This document shows positions 2,099 to 13,902 of a stretch of DNA of 64,000 bases, piece after piece. Positions within the stretch are counted from its first letter, which is position 1, and each line of letters begins with the position of its first letter. A program made the translations under genes and the position numbers. The notes under the pieces were generated by a model that searched no databases, was not told where the DNA came from, and worked only from the letters and a program-made list of their open reading frames with translations. This DNA comes from Limnothrix sp. BL-A-16. GTDB taxonomy: Bacteria > Cyanobacteriota > Cyanobacteriia > CACIAM-69d. The DNA lies in contig CP166615.1 in the NCBI GenBank assembly GCA_041937175.2, forward strand, positions 3,552,001 through 3,616,000. Reading direction: 5' to 3'.

Positions 2099-3466
2099 AT
2101 GACCAATATGCTATCGGGTTTGATTTTGATTGTGGATGATACGCCCACCAATCTAGATGTGGTTTGTGAAGCGTTGAGCGATGCGGGATTTGAGGTGGCC
2201 ATTGCCACTAGCGGTGAACGGGCGCTGCAACAGGTGCAGCGGGAACTGCCGGATTTGATTCTTTTGGATGTGATGATGCCGGGAATCGACGGGTTTGAAA
2301 CTTGCCAGCGTTTGAAGGCCGATCCCTTGACTCGATCGGTTCCGATTATTTTTATGACCGCGCTTTCGGATACGGATAGCAAAATTAGGGCCTTAGATTT
2401 AGGAGCCGCCGATTACATCACGAAGCCCTTCCAAGAACAAGAAGTGCTCGCAAGGGTTAAAACCCATCTGCAAATTCGATCGCTGACCAAAGAATTAGAA
2501 CAGGATCTGGATCAAAAAAATGCGGCTCTGCAAGCTTCCCAGTTGCACCTGATTCAAAGCGAAAAAATGTCTGCGCTGGGAAACCTGGTGGCCGGAATTG
2601 CCCATGAGATTAATAACCCGATCGGGTTTTTACGCGGCAGCATTGAGCATATTCAAGACTATTTGGAAGATTTGATGGAGCATTTGGACTGTTATCAACA
2701 AACCTACTCGGAGGCGAGCGATAGGATCTTGAATCATGCGGAAGATATTGAGCTGGACTTGATTCGCGAGGACTTACCAAAAATTCTGGATTCTATGAAA
2801 TCCGCTAGTCATCGAATTGCGGAAATTAGCACCAGTTTGCGAACCTTTTCGCGATCGGACAGTAATAACGAAGATGCGCAGGTGATGGCGGATATCCACG
2901 AGGGTTTGGATAGTACGCTGTTGATTTTGAAATATCGCCTGAAAGCGAGCGATCACCGCCCAGAAATTTTGGTTCAAAAACTGTATGGGAACTTGCCGGA
3001 AGTGCCTTGCTTTCCGGGACAGCTCAACCAGGTTTTTATGAATTTGTTGGCCAACGCGATCGATGCCTTCGATGAAGCCACCCATCAACAATCCTTTGTG
3101 GAATTGGCAACTCGGCAGCCCGCCATCACGATCGAAACCCTCCTAGCACCCGATCAACAATCGGTGGAAATTTGGATTCGTGATAATGCCTTCGGGATGA
3201 GCGAGGCGGTGCGGCAGCGAGTTTTTGACTGGGCCTTCACCACCAAAGGGGTGGGGCGTGGCACGGGGCTGGGCTTGGCGATCGCCCGTCAAATTGTGGT
3301 CGATCGACATCAGGGCGAGCTGACGGTGGACTCAACTTTGGGGGAAGGCAGTCGTTTTTGTTTGCGGTTGCCGCTGTCCTCAACGCTCTCTGACTTGACT
3401 CGGGAAAGTGGCGCGATGATGGGGATATTGTCGCCCAGCCCGTTGGTAGAGTCCCATTGTTCTTGA
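2099..3466 (+). CDS. Response regulator / histidine kinase hybrid (REC-HisKA-HATPase)
   Basis: N-terminal REC (ILIVDD, DVMMPGIDG, KPF), AGIAHEINNP H-box, NQVFMNLLANAIDA, GTGLGL. Confidence 0.93.
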   Translation: MTNMLSGLILIVDDTPTNLDVVCEALSDAGFEVAIATSGERALQQVQRELPDLILLDVMMPGIDGFETCQRLKADPLTRSVPIIFMTALSDTDSKIRALDLGAADYITKPFQEQEVLARVKTHLQIRSLTKELEQDLDQKNAALQASQLHLIQSEKMSALGNLVAGIAHEINNPIGFLRGSIEHIQDYLEDLMEHLDCYQQTYSEASDRILNHAEDIELDLIREDLPKILDSMKSASHRIAEISTSLRTFSRSDSNNEDAQVMADIHEGLDSTLLILKYRLKASDHRPEILVQKLYGNLPEVPCFPGQLNQVFMNLLANAIDAFDEATHQQSFVELATRQPAITIETLLAPDQQSVEIWIRDNAFGMSEAVRQRVFDWAFTTKGVGRGTGLGLAIARQIVVDRHQGELTVDSTLGEGSRFCLRLPLSSTLSDLTRESGAMMGILSPSPLVESHCS

Positions 3467-3548
3467 GGGCCACCGTTCTTGCTCAATTAGCCGAAAATCG
3501 TCCCTGTGGATCTGGCTCAGATTGTTCAACGGGAATTGCCCAACCTTC

Positions 3549-4640
3549 CTAGATCTCCAGAGATTCCAGCACCCAGGGAGATTGCTTCGGGGGTTCCACC
3601 TGCGGATAGAGCGTTAGCACTTGCTCCAAGCCCAGACGCGATTGAGCAGCGGTGCTGAGGGGTGATTGTCGCTCCCGATCGAAATGTTCACCGGCCGCAC
3701 AGGCAATCATGGCCGCATTGTCTGTGCAAAACTTCATGGGCGGGAACAAAACCCGTAGCCCCAAGGGTTCCGCCGCTGCCGCCAGGGTTGCCCGCAAGCC
3801 CCGATTGGCCGCCACCCCACCCCCGATCGCGATCGTTGAAAACCCCAAATCCTGGGCCGCTGCGATCGCCCGCTTGGTGAGGGCATTCACCACCGCCGTT
3901 TGAAAGCTGGCGGCCAAATCCGCCAAAGGCAATTCAGGGGATTCCGCTTGCAGCTTTTGCACCAATCGCAACATGGCCGTTTTCAGGCCGCTGAAGCTGC
4001 AATCGTAGGGATGAAAGCCCCCGTCCGGCAACGAAACGCGCCCTTCCGGCAACTTGAAAGCCTTGGGATTGCCCTCGGCCGCCAGGCGATCGATCACGGG
4101 CCCGCCCGGATAGCCCAAGCCCATCAGCCGCGCCACCTTGTCAAAGGCCTCTCCCGCCGCATCATCCCGGGTTTGGCCCACCGTTTCATAGACACCCGAG
4201 TCGCGCACCGCAATCAAGCTGGTGTGGCCCCCAGAGACCAACAGGCACAGGAACGGCGGCTGCAACGTTGGCTCCATTAAATAGGAGGCGCAGATGTGAC
4301 CTTCCAGGTGATGTACCGCCAAAAAGGGTTTTTGGTGCAGCATGGCCAGAGTTTTGCCCGCCGTCAACCCCACCAACAGGGCCCCAACCAAACCGGGCGC
4401 ACTGGTGGCGGCCACCGCATCGATCGCCCTCCAGTCGAGACCCGATTCCTGGAGCGCTTGGGCGATTGTCCAATTAATCGTTTCCACATGGCCCCGGGAA
4501 GCCACCTCCGGCACAATGCCACCGTAGGGCTGGTGGAGGGCAATTTGCGACGAGACCACATTGGCTAGCACTTGACGATTCTTTACGATCGCCACCGCCG
4601 TCTCATCACAACTTGTTTCAATTGCTAAAGCAGTCGCCAT
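3549..4640 (-). CDS. tsaD: tRNA N6-threonylcarbamoyladenosine transferase TsaD
   Basis: [54 protein letters not shown] motifs. Confidence 0.97.
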
Positions 4641-4864: not shown

Positions 4865-5347
4865 ATGCGTCAGTTGTTTGCAATTGCGCTAGCGGTTTGC
4901 CTCTGGTTTGGGTTTGCTGCCCCGGCTAAGGCAGATTACTACGCTAACCTGACCCCCTGCGGCCAGAACGCTGCCTTCGTGAAGCGCGCCAAAGCAGCCA
5001 CCACGCCCGAGGCGAAAGCTCGTTTTGAAAAGTATTCCACCCTGCTGTGCGGTGAAGAGGGTCTGCCTCACTTGATCACCGATGGCAACCTGTCTCACCT
5101 GGCAGAATTCACGATTCCGAGCTTGGCTTTCCTGTACATCGCTGGCTGGATTGGCTGGGCTGGTCGTTCGTACCTGCAAGCCGTCAAGAAGGGTGACAGC
5201 CCCGAAGAAAGCGAAATCATCATCAACGTGCCTTTGGCTGTGAAGTGCTCCTTGGGTGGTGCGGCTTGGCCCGCAGCGGCCTTGGCTGAATTCGGCAGCG
5301 GCAAGTTGTTGGCCAAAGAAAGCGAAATCACGGTTTCGCCTCGCTAA
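4865..5347 (+). CDS. psaF: Photosystem I subunit III PsaF
   Basis: Signal peptide, [31 protein letters not shown], ends ITVSPR; ATG 4865 chosen after AAGGA. Confidence 0.97.
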
Positions 5348-5604
5348 ACCCGGTTGGTTTACCGGGGTGCGGTAAGGGCACAGGTTTTATGGTGACAAAT
5401 CGGATGACGACCCCGATCGGTCAGCCTCCGTTGCTGGCAAACAACTGATTCTGTGAGCGATCGCCTGGGGCTGGGAGGCACAACCAACCGGTCCGGTGAT
5501 CGCTTCCCTGTTATCAGAGATCGCCCCGTTTCCGTTCCCGCCTGGGCCATGGCCGATCAACCCCCACTCCCCTGTTTTTAGAGATCTGGATTCGGAGACC
5601 ATCC

Positions 5605-9236: not shown

Positions 9237-9689
9237 TGCGCTTACTTTTGTTCTGAGCGATTAGTTTGCATGATCCTTAAGATCGCATCAAACTGCTCAG
9301 AAAATATGAATCCTTAAATGTCAATTATCAACTGAATCGATCATCCCGTAGGTTGAATGGAAGTAAGGCTAAATTGTTATGAAATGGTTGATTTTTCTCC
9401 CATACACCGAAAATTTTGACCACCCAACCGATCGGGGAAAGGGTTGGTTTGATCGATCGATGGCGGTGCATGGGAGATAAGGGAAAAGGGTTGTTGGCAA
9501 TCGAAAAACCCGTTACTTTTCGGGAGCGGTAGGGTTTGTGGGAGAACGCTTTCGGGGTAACGATTTGGCTTTTTGGTACTCCCACGCACCGTCGATCCCC
9601 TCTCGGGATCACGAGATCGTTTTTCTGCGTCCATGGCAGATGATTTCCCCGGTTAAATTGGAAGGGTTGATCGCCCTGCTCACAAATCT

Positions 9690-10058
9690 ATGCTGTTAAC
9701 CGCTGCCGAACTCGTGACCATGATCGTGGATGGCTTCATCGCCGCCGGAGCCGGAAAGCTGACCGAAGCGGCCCTGCCCAAGCTGCGAACCCTCTGGAGC
9801 AAAATTCGCGATCGCCTGGCCCGTCGCCCGGAGCTGCCTGCCCTGCCGGAAACGCCAACGGGGGTGATCGATCCGCAAGTGCTGCCGATCCTCGATGCGG
9901 AATTGGTGAATGATCCGCCCTTTGCTGAGGAAGTGCGGGCGATCGCTCAGGAATATCAACAACTGATCCAGCAACAAGCCCAAATGACCCAAAACAACTA
10001 CGGCAGCAACAACAAAAACTATCAAATCGGCTCAATCAACGAAGCAAACTTTTCCTAG
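9690..10058 (+). CDS. Bell-like helical protein with C-terminal N/Q-rich amyloid-like motif (putative NLR-paired effector)
   Basis: Hydrophobic N-terminus, LWSKIRDRL, DPPFAEEVRAIAQE, then QNNYGSNNKNYQIGSINEANF, which recurs in the downstream NLR. Confidence 0.7.
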   Translation: MLLTAAELVTMIVDGFIAAGAGKLTEAALPKLRTLWSKIRDRLARRPELPALPETPTGVIDPQVLPILDAELVNDPPFAEEVRAIAQEYQQLIQQQAQMTQNNYGSNNKNYQIGSINEANFS

Positions 10059-10070
10059 CTCATCATTCAA

Positions 10071-10154
10071 GTAGGTTGGGTTGAAGCATGAAACCCAACA
10101 CCGACAAAGTTCGCATTGATCGTGTTGGGTTTCGCACAGCTCAACCCAACCTAC
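10071..10154. repeat. GTAG-type REP doublet (REPIN-like inverted repeat)
   Basis: GTAGGTTGGGTTGA...TCAACCCAACCTAC outer arms; inner GAAACCCAACAC / GTGTTGGGTTTC arms. Confidence 0.8.
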
Positions 10155-10168
10155 TGAGGAAAGTTTCT

Positions 10169-10348
10169 ATGCAGATTCGTTATGACCCTGAAGCTGATGT
10201 GTTGATTTTGATTTTGCGGGATTTGCCCCCAATTGATTCGATCGCAGAACCCGGCGGAATGATTGTTAGCTACGGGGAAGGTGGGGAACCTGTTGCGATC
10301 GAGTTGTTGAATGCATCTCGATTCATCAAGCCAGACGACTTCAACTAA
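10169..10348 (+). CDS. DUF2283-family small protein (TA-associated)
   Basis: MQIRYDPEADVLILIL...YGEGGEPVAIELLNAS; GAGG RBS before ATG 10169. Confidence 0.8.
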   Translation: MQIRYDPEADVLILILRDLPPIDSIAEPGGMIVSYGEGGEPVAIELLNASRFIKPDDFN

Positions 10349-10351
10349 CCC

Positions 10352-12853
10352 TTGAGGCTGAGTGATCCAGTGATTCATGATGTGGTTTCGGTAGAAGTGC
10401 TGACCGGCTATTGTCTGAAGCTGGGTTTCGATGACGGCGTGATCGGAATTGTCGATATTAGCCAGCAGGTTCGCTTTCAAGGTGTTTTTGCACCTTTGGC
10501 CGATCGGGCATTTTTTGAACAAGTAACAGTCAATGCCGACATTGGATCAATTGCTTGGCCCAATGGTGCTGATCTTGATCCGTTGGTGTTGTATGCCGCT
10601 GTCGCTAAAAATCAGACGCAAAATAATTACGGCTCCCACAACAAGAACTATCAAATTGAGTCGATCGGCGTTGCGAACTTTTTCGGCAATCCGATCGAGC
10701 AAGCCTTTGACCAGTCGGATTTGTTGCCGGGGCGATCGGAGGAGGAGATTGAGCGGACGGCGGAGTTGGTGCAGCTCGATCGGTGGCGGCAAGAGTCGGG
10801 CGATCGCTGGGCGGTGATTGTGGGGCCCGGCGGGGCGGGCAAAAGCACCCTGGCTGCTCAATGGTTCGATCGCGACCAGAAGTCTCAAGCATGGGCGGGG
10901 CGACTCTGGACGGATTTGGGGCGGGGGCCGAGCTTTGCGGAAGTGGCGCGGCGGGCGATCGTCCAGTTTGGCGCGGCCAGCCAGGAACAGGCGGAACGGC
11001 TGGAGGAGTCGGAATTATTGCGGCGGCTGTTGGTGACGTTGCAGCAAAGCCCCTGTCTGTGGGTGCTGGATAACCTGGAAACGGTGCTGGAGGCGCGGGA
11101 ACTGCCCGCAGACTATCGGGCGTTTTGGCGGCAGTGGCGATCGTCGTGCCGGGGGGCGGCGGGTTGGGTGTTGTTCACCAGTCGCGATTTACCGACGGAG
11201 ATGGCGGCGCAGCGGCTTGACCTGACGGAGGGCTTTACGCCTGAGCAGGGAGCCAATTTCTTGCAAAAGCGGGGAATTCGGGGCGCTGAGGCAGATTTGC
11301 AGGCGTTTTCCAGGCGGGTGCATGGCTACCCCTTGGTTTTGGGGTTGGCGGCGGGTTTTCTGTGGGCGCAGTTTGGCGACGATCCGCACCTGTCTAAGCT
11401 ACCGGCGGATTTCTTTGCGATCGCGGATCAACACCGGGACGATCCGCAAGCGACGCTGGAAACGGTGTTGCGGTGGAGTTTTGAGCGGTTGTCGCCGGAG
11501 TTGCGGGACTGGTTGGGGCGGCTCTGTGCGTTGCGGGTGGCGTTTGCCTTTGAAACGGAGGATGACCCGCAGCTATTGCAGACGTTGGTGGGGCGATCGT
11601 TCCTAATCCAAGACCAAGACTGCTTGCCGCCGACCAATCCCGATGCGCCGCGCCAATTTGTCTACCGTTGGCAACCGATCGTCCAGCAATTTGTGCAGCG
11701 CCAACAACCCGATCTGATTGAGGCCCATCGATTCGCGATCGCTCATCATGATCAGTGGTATGTAGACCACGACAAATGGCAAACCAAGGCTGATATCGAC
11801 AATTACATCGAAGATTGGTATCACGAGGGCGAACTGGCCAAGCTGACGGGCGATCGACAAGGAGAAGCCAAATCCCTGGGCAATCTGGGCCTTGCCTACG
11901 ATTCCCTCGGGCAAGTCCAGCGGGCGATCGACTTTCACGAGCAACACCGGGCGATCTCTCGCGAGATCGGCGATCGACAAGGAGAAGCCGCCTCCCTGGG
12001 CAATCTGGGCAATGCCTACCGTTCCCTCGGGCAATTCCAGCGGGCGATCGACTTGCACGAGCAATCCCTGGCGATCAAACGCGAGATCGGCGATCGCCAA
12101 GGAGAAGCCGCCTCCCTGGGCAATCTGGGCCTTGCCTACCGTTCCCTCGGGCAATTCCAGCGGGCGATCGACTTGCATGAACAATCCCTGGCGATCGCTC
12201 GCGAGATCGGCGATCGCCAAGGAGAAGCCGCCTCCCTGGGCAATCTGGGCGCTGCCTACCAGTCCCTCGGGCAAGTCCAGCGGGCGATCGACTTGCACGA
12301 GCAATCCCTGGCGATCAAACGCGAGATCGGCGATCGCCAAGGAGAAGCCGACTCCCTGGGTAATCTGGGTGTTGCCTACCATTCCCTCGGGCAATTCCAG
12401 CGGGCGATCGACTTTCACGAGCAATCCCTGGCAATCGAACGCGAGATCGGCGATCGCAAAGGAGAAGCCAGCTCCCTGGGCAATCTGGGCAATGCCTACT
12501 ATTCCCTCGGGCAATTTCAGCAGGCGATCAACTTGCATGAGCAACACCGGGCGATCTCTCGCGAGATCGGCGATCAACAGGGAGAAGCCAACTCGCTCAA
12601 TAACCGTGGCGTAGCGCTGGAAAAACTTGATCGCCTAGCAGAAGCCCAAGCAGACTTTGCAATGGCTCGGGATTTATTTCGCCAACTGGGTCAACATCAC
12701 TATGCCAAAATAGCTGAGCAAAATTATCAGCGAGTCACCCAAGCCCTGCAAACACCCCCACCCATCCCCACCGAAAAGCCCCGATCTCCCTGGTGGGTAC
12801 GACTGTGGCAAGCTTGGCGGCGCTGGCTCCGTCGCCTCTTCGACGGCCCGTAA
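10352..12853 (+). CDS. NLR-like STAND protein: DUF2442 - amyloid-like motif - NB-ARC - TPR repeats
   Basis: N-terminal DUF2442-like segment (GFDDG...WPNGADLDP); P-loop GPGGAGKST, Walker B LWVLDNLE, TSR, GYPL; 40-aa TPRs. Confidence 0.85.
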   Translation: MRLSDPVIHDVVSVEVLTGYCLKLGFDDGVIGIVDISQQVRFQGVFAPLADRAFFEQVTVNADIGSIAWPNGADLDPLVLYAAVAKNQTQNNYGSHNKNYQIESIGVANFFGNPIEQAFDQSDLLPGRSEEEIERTAELVQLDRWRQESGDRWAVIVGPGGAGKSTLAAQWFDRDQKSQAWAGRLWTDLGRGPSFAEVARRAIVQFGAASQEQAERLEESELLRRLLVTLQQSPCLWVLDNLETVLEARELPADYRAFWRQWRSSCRGAAGWVLFTSRDLPTEMAAQRLDLTEGFTPEQGANFLQKRGIRGAEADLQAFSRRVHGYPLVLGLAAGFLWAQFGDDPHLSKLPADFFAIADQHRDDPQATLETVLRWSFERLSPELRDWLGRLCALRVAFAFETEDDPQLLQTLVGRSFLIQDQDCLPPTNPDAPRQFVYRWQPIVQQFVQRQQPDLIEAHRFAIAHHDQWYVDHDKWQTKADIDNYIEDWYHEGELAKLTGDRQGEAKSLGNLGLAYDSLGQVQRAIDFHEQHRAISREIGDRQGEAASLGNLGNAYRSLGQFQRAIDLHEQSLAIKREIGDRQGEAASLGNLGLAYRSLGQFQRAIDLHEQSLAIAREIGDRQGEAASLGNLGAAYQSLGQVQRAIDLHEQSLAIKREIGDRQGEADSLGNLGVAYHSLGQFQRAIDFHEQSLAIEREIGDRKGEASSLGNLGNAYYSLGQFQQAINLHEQHRAISREIGDQQGEANSLNNRGVALEKLDRLAEAQADFAMARDLFRQLGQHHYAKIAEQNYQRVTQALQTPPPIPTEKPRSPWWVRLWQAWRRWLRRLFDGP
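11849..12610 (+). repeat. Near-identical 120-bp intragenic TPR repeats (6 full copies plus a partial)
   Basis: GGCGATC..AGGAGAAGCC-type unit start recurs at 11849, 11969, 12089, 12209, 12329, 12449, 12569. Confidence 0.95.
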
Positions 12854-12890
12854 AATCCATCTTTTGGTTATTGGAAAACGGAGAATCGGC

Positions 12891-13145
12891 ATGAAAGCGA
12901 TCGCCCTAGCAGAAGTCCGCGCCAACTTTGAGCAATACCTTGACCTCGCCAAAACCCAACCGATCGCCATTGTCGATCAGGGAAAACCCGTTGGATTTTT
13001 GATTGGCTTACTCGACCCCGACAACTGGTGGGAAGAGTGCTTGCTACGACATCCCAAATTCTTGAGCCATGTGGCCGAACAACGCCGCCAACTGCGATCG
13101 GGCCAAGGCAAAACCCTCGAAGAAATTCGCGCACGTTACGAGTAG
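12891..13145 (+). CDS. Phd/YefM-family antitoxin-like protein
   Basis: MKAIALAEVRANFEQYLDLAKTQPIAIVDQGKPVG; GGAG RBS. Confidence 0.8.
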   Translation: MKAIALAEVRANFEQYLDLAKTQPIAIVDQGKPVGFLIGLLDPDNWWEECLLRHPKFLSHVAEQRRQLRSGQGKTLEEIRARYE

Positions 13146-13408: not shown

Positions 13409-13636
13409 ATGCAAATTAAAGACTTAACGATCGAAGAATTCACAGACTTATTCAAAAGCTTGCTGCGGGAAACCATTCAAGAAGTCCTCGCAGAAATGCT
13501 CACAGATTCCGAAGCCGATTTGCCGCTCAAACCCGGACTGGCCGAAGCACTCCTGAAACAGCGCGATCAGCGGCAAGCAGGCCAAACAACACCCCTCAGC
13601 ACCGAACAAGTCATGGCCCGTTTAGGACTCGACTAG
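13409..13636 (+). CDS. Putative antitoxin partner of RelE/ParE toxin
   Basis: MQIKDLTIEEF...PLSTEQVMARLGLD; ends 2 bp before the toxin gene; GAGGAGG RBS. Confidence 0.75.
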   Translation: MQIKDLTIEEFTDLFKSLLRETIQEVLAEMLTDSEADLPLKPGLAEALLKQRDQRQAGQTTPLSTEQVMARLGLD

Positions 13637-13638
13637 CC

Positions 13639-13902
13639 ATGAGTTATTCGGTTGAATACGACCCACAAGCCGTCATCGATCTTGAACAATTACCCAAAAC
13701 TATGCAGAAGCGAGTAATCAGCAAAATCCAATGGCTAGCTGATAACTTTGCCCAAATTCAACCCCTGCCCCTCTCTGCCAACCTCGCGGGTTTCTATAAG
13801 CTCCGAGTGGGTGACTATCGGATTATTTATGAAGTCGATCGCGTCATTCGAGTGATCACAGTCGATCGTATCGGCCACCGCCGCGACATTTATGAATCCT
13901 GA
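13639..13902 (+). CDS. RelE/ParE (RelE/StbE) family toxin
   Basis: YKLRVGDYRIIYE...IGHRRDIY. Confidence 0.93.
   Translation: MSYSVEYDPQAVIDLEQLPKTMQKRVISKIQWLADNFAQIQPLPLSANLAGFYKLRVGDYRIIYEVDRVIRVITVDRIGHRRDIYES

Follow-up and report, generated by a model that had tools for sequence, protein, structure and literature searches.

In the fungus Podospora anserina, a motif of the NOD-like receptor (NLR) NWD2 serves as template for the prion-forming region at the C-terminus of HET-S, the neighbouring pore-forming helical effector. The fungal motif is known as HRAM, and the fungal effector has two pseudo-repeats. In bacteria, pairs of Bell effectors and NLRs with common motifs, the bacterial amyloid signalling sequences (BASS), have been described; these motifs are reported to be enriched in Q, N and G, and the classes BASS7 to BASS10 are specific to cyanobacteria (Dyrka et al., 2020; 10.1101/2020.01.06.895854). 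As far as the consulted literature extends, BASS1 and BASS3 form fibrils and prions, while the Bab/Agp pair of E. coli (BASS11) acts in abortive infection, its sensor activating a Bell-like killer via a common amyloid motif, with a model in which helix 1 is released (10.1101/2024.11.07.622273). Here we examine a locus of Limnothrix sp. BL-A-16 located in a 64,000-nucleotide stretch of contig CP166615.1 (positions 3,552,001 to 3,616,000 of the forward strand), hereafter the window; positions count from its first letter unless a contig or locus handle precedes them. The locus comprises a gene for a 122-amino-acid (aa) protein (9690..10058, + strand) and a collinear long open reading frame (ORF; 10352..12853, + strand) with an NB-ARC domain and tetratricopeptide repeats (TPR). 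It is probably a BASS9-class Bell effector plus NB-ARC/TPR NLR module, the bacterial counterpart of fungal HET-S/NWD2. Directly supporting this assignment are the two motifs, their conservation at the protein level, the architecture of the locus, the identity to a published BASS9 sequence and the co-variation of the motif across loci.

The two motif copies are found at the effector C-terminus and ahead of the NB-ARC domain of the long ORF. The effector peptide QNNYGSNNKNYQIGSINEANF (9990-10052, + strand) corresponds to residues 101-121 of the 122-aa ORF, while the receptor peptide QNNYGSHNKNYQIESIGVANF (10619-10681, + strand) corresponds to residues 90-110 of the long ORF, which carries ...TQNNYGSHNKNYQIESIGVANF at residues 89-110. 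The effector itself ends in ...MTQNNYGSNNKNYQIGSINEANFS, and its full motif of that sequence, around the 21-residue core, extends over 9981..10055 (+ strand). An earlier interpretation made from the DNA letters only (the sequence-only reading) had placed the two peptides at these coordinates with a match of 17 of 21 residues, which was reproduced from the window sequence; at the DNA level, 48 of 63 bases are identical. Ten of the 21 codons are the same in both copies, seven differ synonymously and four non-synonymously, and all four codon pairs singled out in that reading (AGC/TCC, AAC/AAT, AAA/AAG and GCA/GCG) are present. Its claim that the motif is conserved at the protein level is borne out by the seven synonymous differences and by a Smith-Waterman alignment of the last 40 effector residues with the first 150 of the long ORF, the score of which (93) was reached by none of 5000 shuffles of either side (maximum 54 with the effector side shuffled and 50 with the long-ORF side shuffled). 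When the effector was searched against all six frames of the complete 4.56-Mb genome, the receptor motif was the sole hit at E <= 10 besides the effector gene (E 9e-5, 75% identity, query residues 98-121). The composition of the effector-side 21-mer is 6 N, 2 Q and 2 G.

The family to which the motif belongs, left open by the sequence-only reading, was settled as BASS9 by a verbatim match. Effector residues 90-119 are identical to Ccya03_s038 of the Bell-side set in supplementary file 1 of PMC8086366 (Dyrka et al., 2021), the README of which equates Cya03 with BASS9. According to that article, the Bell-side motifs used for training were taken from Dyrka et al. (2020), and 38 of the sequences represent BASS9. 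Since the effector 30-mer belongs to the Bell-side BASS9 set and the neighbouring ORF is of the NB-ARC/TPR kind, the locus is a Bell-type effector plus NLR locus as in Dyrka et al. (2020). The layout proposed earlier agrees with the published one, in which a small helical protein has the motif at its C-terminus and a collinear NB-ARC/TPR protein has it upstream of the NTPase. The receptor motif at residues 90-110 also falls inside the 150-residue N-terminal window which the authors used for adding motif pairs (PMC8086366). The locus is therefore already known in kind, and its effector side is part of a published data set. No literature linking Limnothrix with amyloid signalling was found, and the preprint of Dyrka et al. 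(2020) does not mention the name "Limnothrix" in its main text.

With described BASS9 Bell/NLR pairs, the locus shares the following: its 122-aa helical protein ends in an N-, Q- and G-rich motif of about 21-25 residues, an NB-ARC/TPR protein encoded collinearly within 5 kb bears the same motif ahead of its NTPase, and the host is a filamentous cyanobacterium. It differs in its spacing, as published collinear pairs are mostly at most 10 bp apart or overlapping (57% and 42%, respectively; 10.1101/2020.01.06.895854), whereas here about 300 bp, an extra gene and a fused gene intervene. It also differs in that the NLR start codon has been deleted and the motif lies at residues 90-110 of a DUF2442 fusion. 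The resemblance to HET-S/NWD2 lies in the general scheme of an NLR motif and a neighbouring effector; there is no sequence relation, the kingdom is another one, and the window effector has a single motif copy. For the mechanism that we propose for the window pair, Bab/Agp provides the case shown by experiment; it likewise combines a small, helical, Bell-like killer whose amyloid motif is C-terminal with an adjoining TPR sensor whose motif is N-terminal. However, its sensor is of the TPR-GreA/B-C-PIN kind rather than an NB-ARC NLR, its class is BASS11, and its killer domain is shorter, at about 80 aa ("Babybell"). A likeness of the YQIG segment to the RHIM core had also been suggested. What holds of it is a short Q-centred beta-strand core with Y-Q-I-G in the effector, a weak similarity to RHIM, PP and BASS3, while the G-phi-Q-phi-G signature of these motifs is lacking (N-Y-Q-I-G in the effector, N-Y-Q-I-E in the NLR) and the class is BASS9 and not BASS3. 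Membership in RHIM/BASS3 is not supported by these cores.

In its size and its helical N-domain, the effector conforms to the description of Bell proteins, whose alpha-helical N-domain comprises about 100 aa of a total of about 120-140 aa. That its C-terminus is identical to a Bell-side entry of the published set lends indirect support to this domain assignment. A HMMER search among 1.84 billion representatives returned 40 homologues at E <= 0.001, mostly of 95-153 aa, which have the N-terminal ~95 residues in common and differ in their Q/N/G-rich tails. An alignment of 34 of the 40, leaving out five long multi-stretch proteins and P0028 (replaced N-terminus), was used for an AlphaFold2 model. 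This had a mean predicted local distance difference test score (pLDDT) of 80.3 and helices at residues 5-20, 28-44, 64-74 and 76-103; residues 104-120, the motif tail, had pLDDT below 50, and the tail is thus predicted to be disordered. The gene can accordingly be divided into a helical N-domain (residues ~1-103) and a disordered motif-bearing tail according to the model. The first helix, MLLTAAELVTMIVDGFIAAGAG, is hydrophobic and helical in the model. The ratio of non-synonymous to synonymous substitution rates (dN/dS) against the copy in the same-genus genome G002, at L007 2947-3321, was 0.09, a rough two-sequence estimate. We also observed that dS between these two effectors (0.40) is 2.5-5 times that of neighbouring genes (0.08-0.16; again two-sequence estimates), which hints at a mosaic history of the locus. 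To the left of the effector, a conserved leader (9651..9689, + strand) marks the module edge, as DNA homology to the loci L007, L011 and L010 starts at 9651-9652.

On the receptor side, the whole fusion ORF DUF2442::BASS9::NB-ARC::TPR encodes 833 aa from a TTG at 10352, starting 294 bp past the effector stop. The public protein call for it (P0029) has 827 aa, starts at the GTG at 10370 and begins with MIHDVV. Residues 1-87 (10352..10614, + strand) form the DUF2442 part (Pfam PF10387, E 6e-11, residues 11-83). The NB-ARC NTPase domain (10793..11281, + strand; Pfam PF00931, E 2.8e-8, residues 148-310) has the P-loop GPGGAGKST in its translation. The motif (residues 90-110) lies just before this domain, as had been noted, given that the NB-ARC match starts at residue 148. 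The TPR array (11849..12589, + strand), the putative sensor, is composed of 6.2 tandem copies of a 120-nt unit (89% matches and score 1111 in Tandem Repeats Finder) and has eight Pfam TPR_12 stretches (E 5.8e-85). A P-loop NB-ARC domain followed by C-terminal repeats is what characterizes NLR-like NTPases of the STAND class (signal transduction ATPases with numerous domains), to which the fusion ORF therefore corresponds. Sizes of NLR orthologues range from 562 to 833 aa, with variable TPR copy number. The NLR portion ahead of the TPR array has a dN/dS of 0.37 against G002, and the DUF2442 part one of 0.22 (rough two-sequence estimates); the values for effector and NLR point to purifying selection. 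Among the NLR proteins P0029-P0037, two kinds of C-terminal tail were seen, a W/R-rich one ending ...PWWVRLWQAWRRWLRRLF (window, 12700-12853) and a hydrophobic, membrane-anchor-like one ending ...VAAGLLAFPVALVWFLALLLWRQLARLWRR (P0030 and P0031).

Related loci provide the evidence that the two motif copies change together. Our effector search gave 28 proteins at E <= 0.01 among 53 candidates, and the 18 that were aligned have a near-constant N-domain and three tail types, namely A (the window type), B (...AGVNIQTGA.STVKVVRDIH...NVSF) and C (...AGVNVIASDQSTVKAIGSIQADG.VNINF). The NLR search yielded 13 proteins at E <= 1e-10 among 8000 scored candidates; nine of them are orthologues with 72-100% identity, and their N-termini are of the same three types. 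Orthologous NLRs, including that of G002, have the receptor motif at their very N-terminus (MTQNNYG..., MTQSNYG... or MQNNSG...), unlike the window strain. In G002, a type A effector accompanies an NLR starting MTQNNYGPGNKNYQIESIETANF. Type C pairs are present in L011, where the NLR starts MTEPTGDHSFTINTDGRSTVQAIQTITAGRDVTVNF, and in strain FACHB-881, where effector P0024 and NLR P0084 are on one contig with accessions three apart. For type B, represented by effector P0080 and NLR P0033, the only support for co-location is the equal size of their contigs (567,897). In G004, which belongs to another genus of the same family, the effector is directly followed by an NLR and the two have a fourth motif in common, GVQIAGDVNELNL with GIQIAGDVGNLTI (type D). 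Identity of the effector domain to the window copy is 82-94% within the genus and 46-48% in G004. In a 7 x 7 Smith-Waterman matrix, cognate pairs scored 93 (A), 67 (B), 46-55 (C) and 57 (D), while non-cognate pairs scored 14-40, with B and C nearest each other. The sequence-only reading had staked itself on the motif pair recurring in homologous loci, and there the pair both co-occurs and co-varies. This co-variation strengthens the functional link between the two genes. By eye, and as an impression only, BASS2 entries look similar to type B, and some BASS9 and BASS10 entries to type C.

An effector match was found in four of the eight genomes of the order, this genome included, and not all relatives have the complete pair. 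The locus L010 has a type A effector (3305-3679) without a neighbouring NLR. Because its flanks are those of the complete type C locus L011, one and the same chromosomal site holds type A in one strain and type C in another. The homology of L010 to the window stops within a hairpin repeat that follows the effector gene (10071..10156), where the NLR is missing. In G001 (L009 5191-5607, - strand), a truncated effector remnant with a replaced N-terminus has homology only to residues 40-61, and the ORF at 4888-5382 beside it presumably resembles a small transposase. Replaced N-termini were also found in the effectors P0027 and P0028. The upstream flanks of L007, L011 and L010 map elsewhere in this genome, with a common start of homology at window 9651-9652. 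We observed that the flanks of the G002 copy map to 4.38 Mb and 2.98 Mb of C1, the contig of this genome, and those of L011 and L010 to 3.78-3.81 Mb and 4.03 Mb. Such varying chromosomal contexts could reflect a mobile or recombining unit, or genome rearrangement.

The window copy of the NLR has been remodelled by a deletion. In G002, the effector gene is followed by the hairpin repeat, by DUF2283 and by DUF2442, there an independent gene (116 aa) with a stop of its own; a spacer of 33 nt then leads to the NLR ATG. Relative to G002, a 123-bp in-frame deletion has its junction at 10614..10615 (+ strand) in a pairwise DNA alignment (BLAST ends L007 3877|4001 against C1 3562614|3562615). The missing bases are the last 88 nt of DUF2442 including the stop, the spacer and the 'AT' of the NLR ATG. 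As the deletion is in frame, the reading frame continues from DUF2442 residues 1-87 through a junction codon (Q88) to the former NLR, beginning with its T2, and because the NLR ATG was taken, the receptor motif now lies in the interior of a DUF2442 fusion ORF. In-frame starts between the region where DUF2442 begins and the motif are limited to TTG 10583, GTG 10586 and TTG 10589, with no obvious Shine-Dalgarno sequence. Having lost its start codon, the receptor would thus be produced as a DUF2442 fusion that has the motif inside it, or else from a weak start within the ORF at 10583-10589. The deletion is real and not an assembly artefact, because contigs of four public runs from four studies bridge the junction with no gaps. 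These are three lake-water metagenomes and one organism-code-labelled run (an 8,584-nt contig differing at 44 of 1,522 positions); one of these four could be the source sample. All four runs carry C>T at 10617, changing ACG (Thr) to ATG directly before the motif and giving ...Q-M-QNNYG..., a change that we read as a putative restored start codon, absent in the window strain. Among the three DUF2442-matching proteins longer than DUF2442, the window protein is the only DUF2442-NLR fusion; another is a 160-aa DUF2283-DUF2442 fusion. As a separate observation, the annotated start of P0030, MDAADVAKTQSP, precedes MTQNNYG... and resembles the C-terminal end of DUF2442 (AAVAKNQ in the window), so that the junction may have been remodelled differently in that strain. 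No run with usable RNA coverage turned up, as the three RNA-labelled ones contained 0.07-0.13 of the sampled words.

For amyloid formation, templating, membrane killing and the trigger, we infer a course of events similar to that of the described systems. The TPR array would sense the trigger, most plausibly phage infection, and oligomerisation of the NB-ARC domains would gather the receptor motifs, allowing them to adopt a cross-beta fold. This receptor seed would template the same fold in the disordered effector tail, and the hydrophobic N-terminal helix of the effector, once freed, would attack the membrane and lead to cell death. A complex prediction with three copies of effector residues 86-122 and receptor residues 84-120 gave a score of 0.01 against a mark of 0.34, which, with controls absent, speaks neither for nor against binding.

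A number of results weigh against the assignment to a BASS9 Bell/NLR module. The effector had no match in Pfam, NCBIfam or PADLOC, libraries which hold no Bell model, and with its model Foldseek retrieved no PDB structure at E <= 0.001. In VIA-align, the ZAR1 resistosome ranked first (6j5t_G, Z 6.9, rmsd 2.7 Å, 75 residues) but was tied with unrelated helical bundles; HeLo, MLKL and Bab structures were absent from the wide VIA-align list, an absence that does not exclude likeness. The first acidic residue of helix 1 is E7 (E4 in most alleles), as opposed to position 2-3 described for Bell. On the side of the motif, BASS9 is the worst-modelled and most heterogeneous class, with an average precision of 0.42-0.63 in PMC8086366, and the NLR-side peptide NYQIE does not occur in the searched part of its supplement. 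No experiments on BASS9 were found in the consulted parts of the literature examined, where BASS1, BASS3 and BASS11 are the classes tested. To these points are added the orphan effector of L010 and the state of the window NLR itself, since a motif away from a free N-terminus and a lost NLR ATG mean that the window copy may be impaired.

The last point is central to the rival explanation that we take most seriously, even though we consider it unlikely, namely that a module of the BASS9 kind is crippled in this strain, the ATG loss and the burial of the motif behind an 87-residue DUF2442 block preventing proper expression or templating, so that the locus is a relic at an early stage. The deletion of the NLR start codon and the weak remaining starts fit this explanation, as does the ACG>ATG change at 10617, which in four of four runs with the same junction looks like a repair missing from the window strain; the decay in relatives (the orphan effector of L010, the G001 remnant and the replaced N-termini of P0027 and P0028) points in the same direction. 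However, no stop interrupts the 833 codons of the frame, the P-loop is intact and eight TPR_12 stretches are present, and the dN/dS values against G002 (0.22 for the DUF2442 part, 0.37 for the NLR part) both lie below 1. Moreover, fusions of BASS motifs to green fluorescent protein (motif-GFP) still gave foci according to the consulted literature, and therefore a flanking folded domain need not block assembly.

The other two explanations concern the motif itself. It is rather improbable that the common motif is a specific non-amyloid docking element, such as a beta-zipper or short heterodimer interface, by which the NLR would hold or recruit the effector with no prion-like templating. In its favour, co-variation shows that the copies must match and not how they interact, and no BASS9 fibril data were found in the literature examined; the N/Q/G composition is nevertheless typical of BASS and fungal motifs, the effector tail is predicted by the model to be disordered, and all tested motifs of this gene layout formed amyloid, as far as the consulted reports go. 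We give next to no credence to the idea that a recent local duplication, or gene conversion, produced the similarity and that it has no function. The copies do lie just ~630 bp apart on the same strand, but seven of the 11 differing codons are changed synonymously, the pairing recurs with unrelated motif sequences at other loci, the motif is found at the exact C-terminus of the effector and at the N-terminus of orthologous NLRs, and the pairwise match is limited to the coding motif, the flanking non-coding DNA not being duplicated. A BASS9 Bell/NLR module thus remains our preferred explanation.

The sequence-only reading had presented effector and NLR as adjacent, which does not hold, as they are separated by a hairpin repeat and by the DUF2283 and DUF2442 genes. 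The repeat is a palindrome of ~85 nt resembling miniature inverted-repeat transposable elements (MITE) or repetitive extragenic palindromes (REP), occupies the spacer after the effector (10071..10156, no strand assigned) and has 8-12 partial or full copies in the genome. Its RNA fold has an energy of -50.3 kcal/mol (z = -7.9; none of 200 shuffles as stable), and contig depth in metagenome runs is ~30-fold higher over it. An Rfam scan of 9300-10700 returned a single chance-level row (SNORD71, E 0.51, below the gathering score). Copies of the repeat were also seen ~100 nt from two other NB-ARC genes (C1:2328374-2328492 and C1:2524479-2524562). The small DUF2283 gene (10169..10348, + strand; Pfam PF10049, E 6.7e-11, residues 30-77) has a frame open from 10088 (an 86-aa ORF, 10088-10348); its start is likely the ATG at 10169, because the first 27 codons of the open frame fall in the repeat, and the relative in L011 starts with MQIRYDPE. 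A rough two-sequence dN/dS estimate against G002, from 11 changes only, was 0.73.

The genes found between or beside effector and NLR vary by locus, with DUF2283 and DUF2442 in the window and G002, DUF4258 and DUF2283 in L011, none in G004, and DUF29 in the second Bell/NLR locus of this genome. The DUF2283 and DUF2442 genes and the hairpin repeat are most likely small hitch-hiking mobile cassettes outside the switch. A type II toxin-antitoxin pair (BECR-fold toxin plus DUF2283) was considered and rejected: the window DUF2283 is flanked by the repeat and DUF2442, without a toxin-family match. Elsewhere, the partners of DUF2283 are DUF4258 in L011 and PBECR2 at the second locus of this genome. 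Both DUF2283 matches of the genome (10169-10348 and C1:609613-609750) are located at Bell/NLR loci, which may only reflect the clustering of toxin-antitoxin-like cassettes in defence islands. Downstream of the NLR we noted an ORF of the Phd/YefM antitoxin family (12864-13145, E 7.8e-8), a 75-aa ORF with no family match (13409-13636) and, after it, an ORF of the ParE toxin family (13639-13902, E 1.7e-12).

A second Bell-like/NLR pair was observed in the same genome outside the window (G000:C1:605502-609194; L019 1003-4695). It consists of a 135-aa protein ending IENWKGINVKGGQNTISGNTFQF and a 954-aa NB-ARC/TPR protein with ENWQGLNIKGGTNDIHDNAF near its start, with the DUF29 gene between them, and is followed by PBECR2, DUF2283, XisH and XisI genes. 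By eye, its motifs resemble BASS7 entries of the supplement. In G004 (L008 2399-2767, + strand), ~3 kb past the 3' end of the type D NLR and on the opposite strand to it, a 122-aa ORF with a G/N-rich tail, ...GGGDNVGGSKTVINNYYGGR, could be another signalling-motif protein.

The pair re-discovers a published system, and therefore no new principle follows from it. What goes beyond the literature examined is the co-varying A, B and C series on one within-genus backbone, and the DUF2442 fusion with its apparent ATG repair elsewhere. A more ambitious and doubtful proposal, somewhat less likely still than a crippled module, is that the Limnothrix locus is a natural specificity-cassette system, in which at least three mutually non-cognate motif types (A, B and C) are swapped jointly in effector and NLR on a conserved within-genus backbone, the receptor motif here still working internally behind the captured DUF2442. 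Possible drivers of such motif exchange are insulation between pathways or escape from phage-encoded amyloid decoys. If this were true, the internal receptor motif would show that a free N-terminus is needless for templating, or that DUF2442 has a gating role. The three natural receptor N-termini, namely the free MTQNNYG start, the fusion with the ATG restored and the fusion without an ATG, bear on this requirement for a free end, and a single genus backbone with three or four co-varying motif types constitutes a panel for the specificity of amyloid templating.

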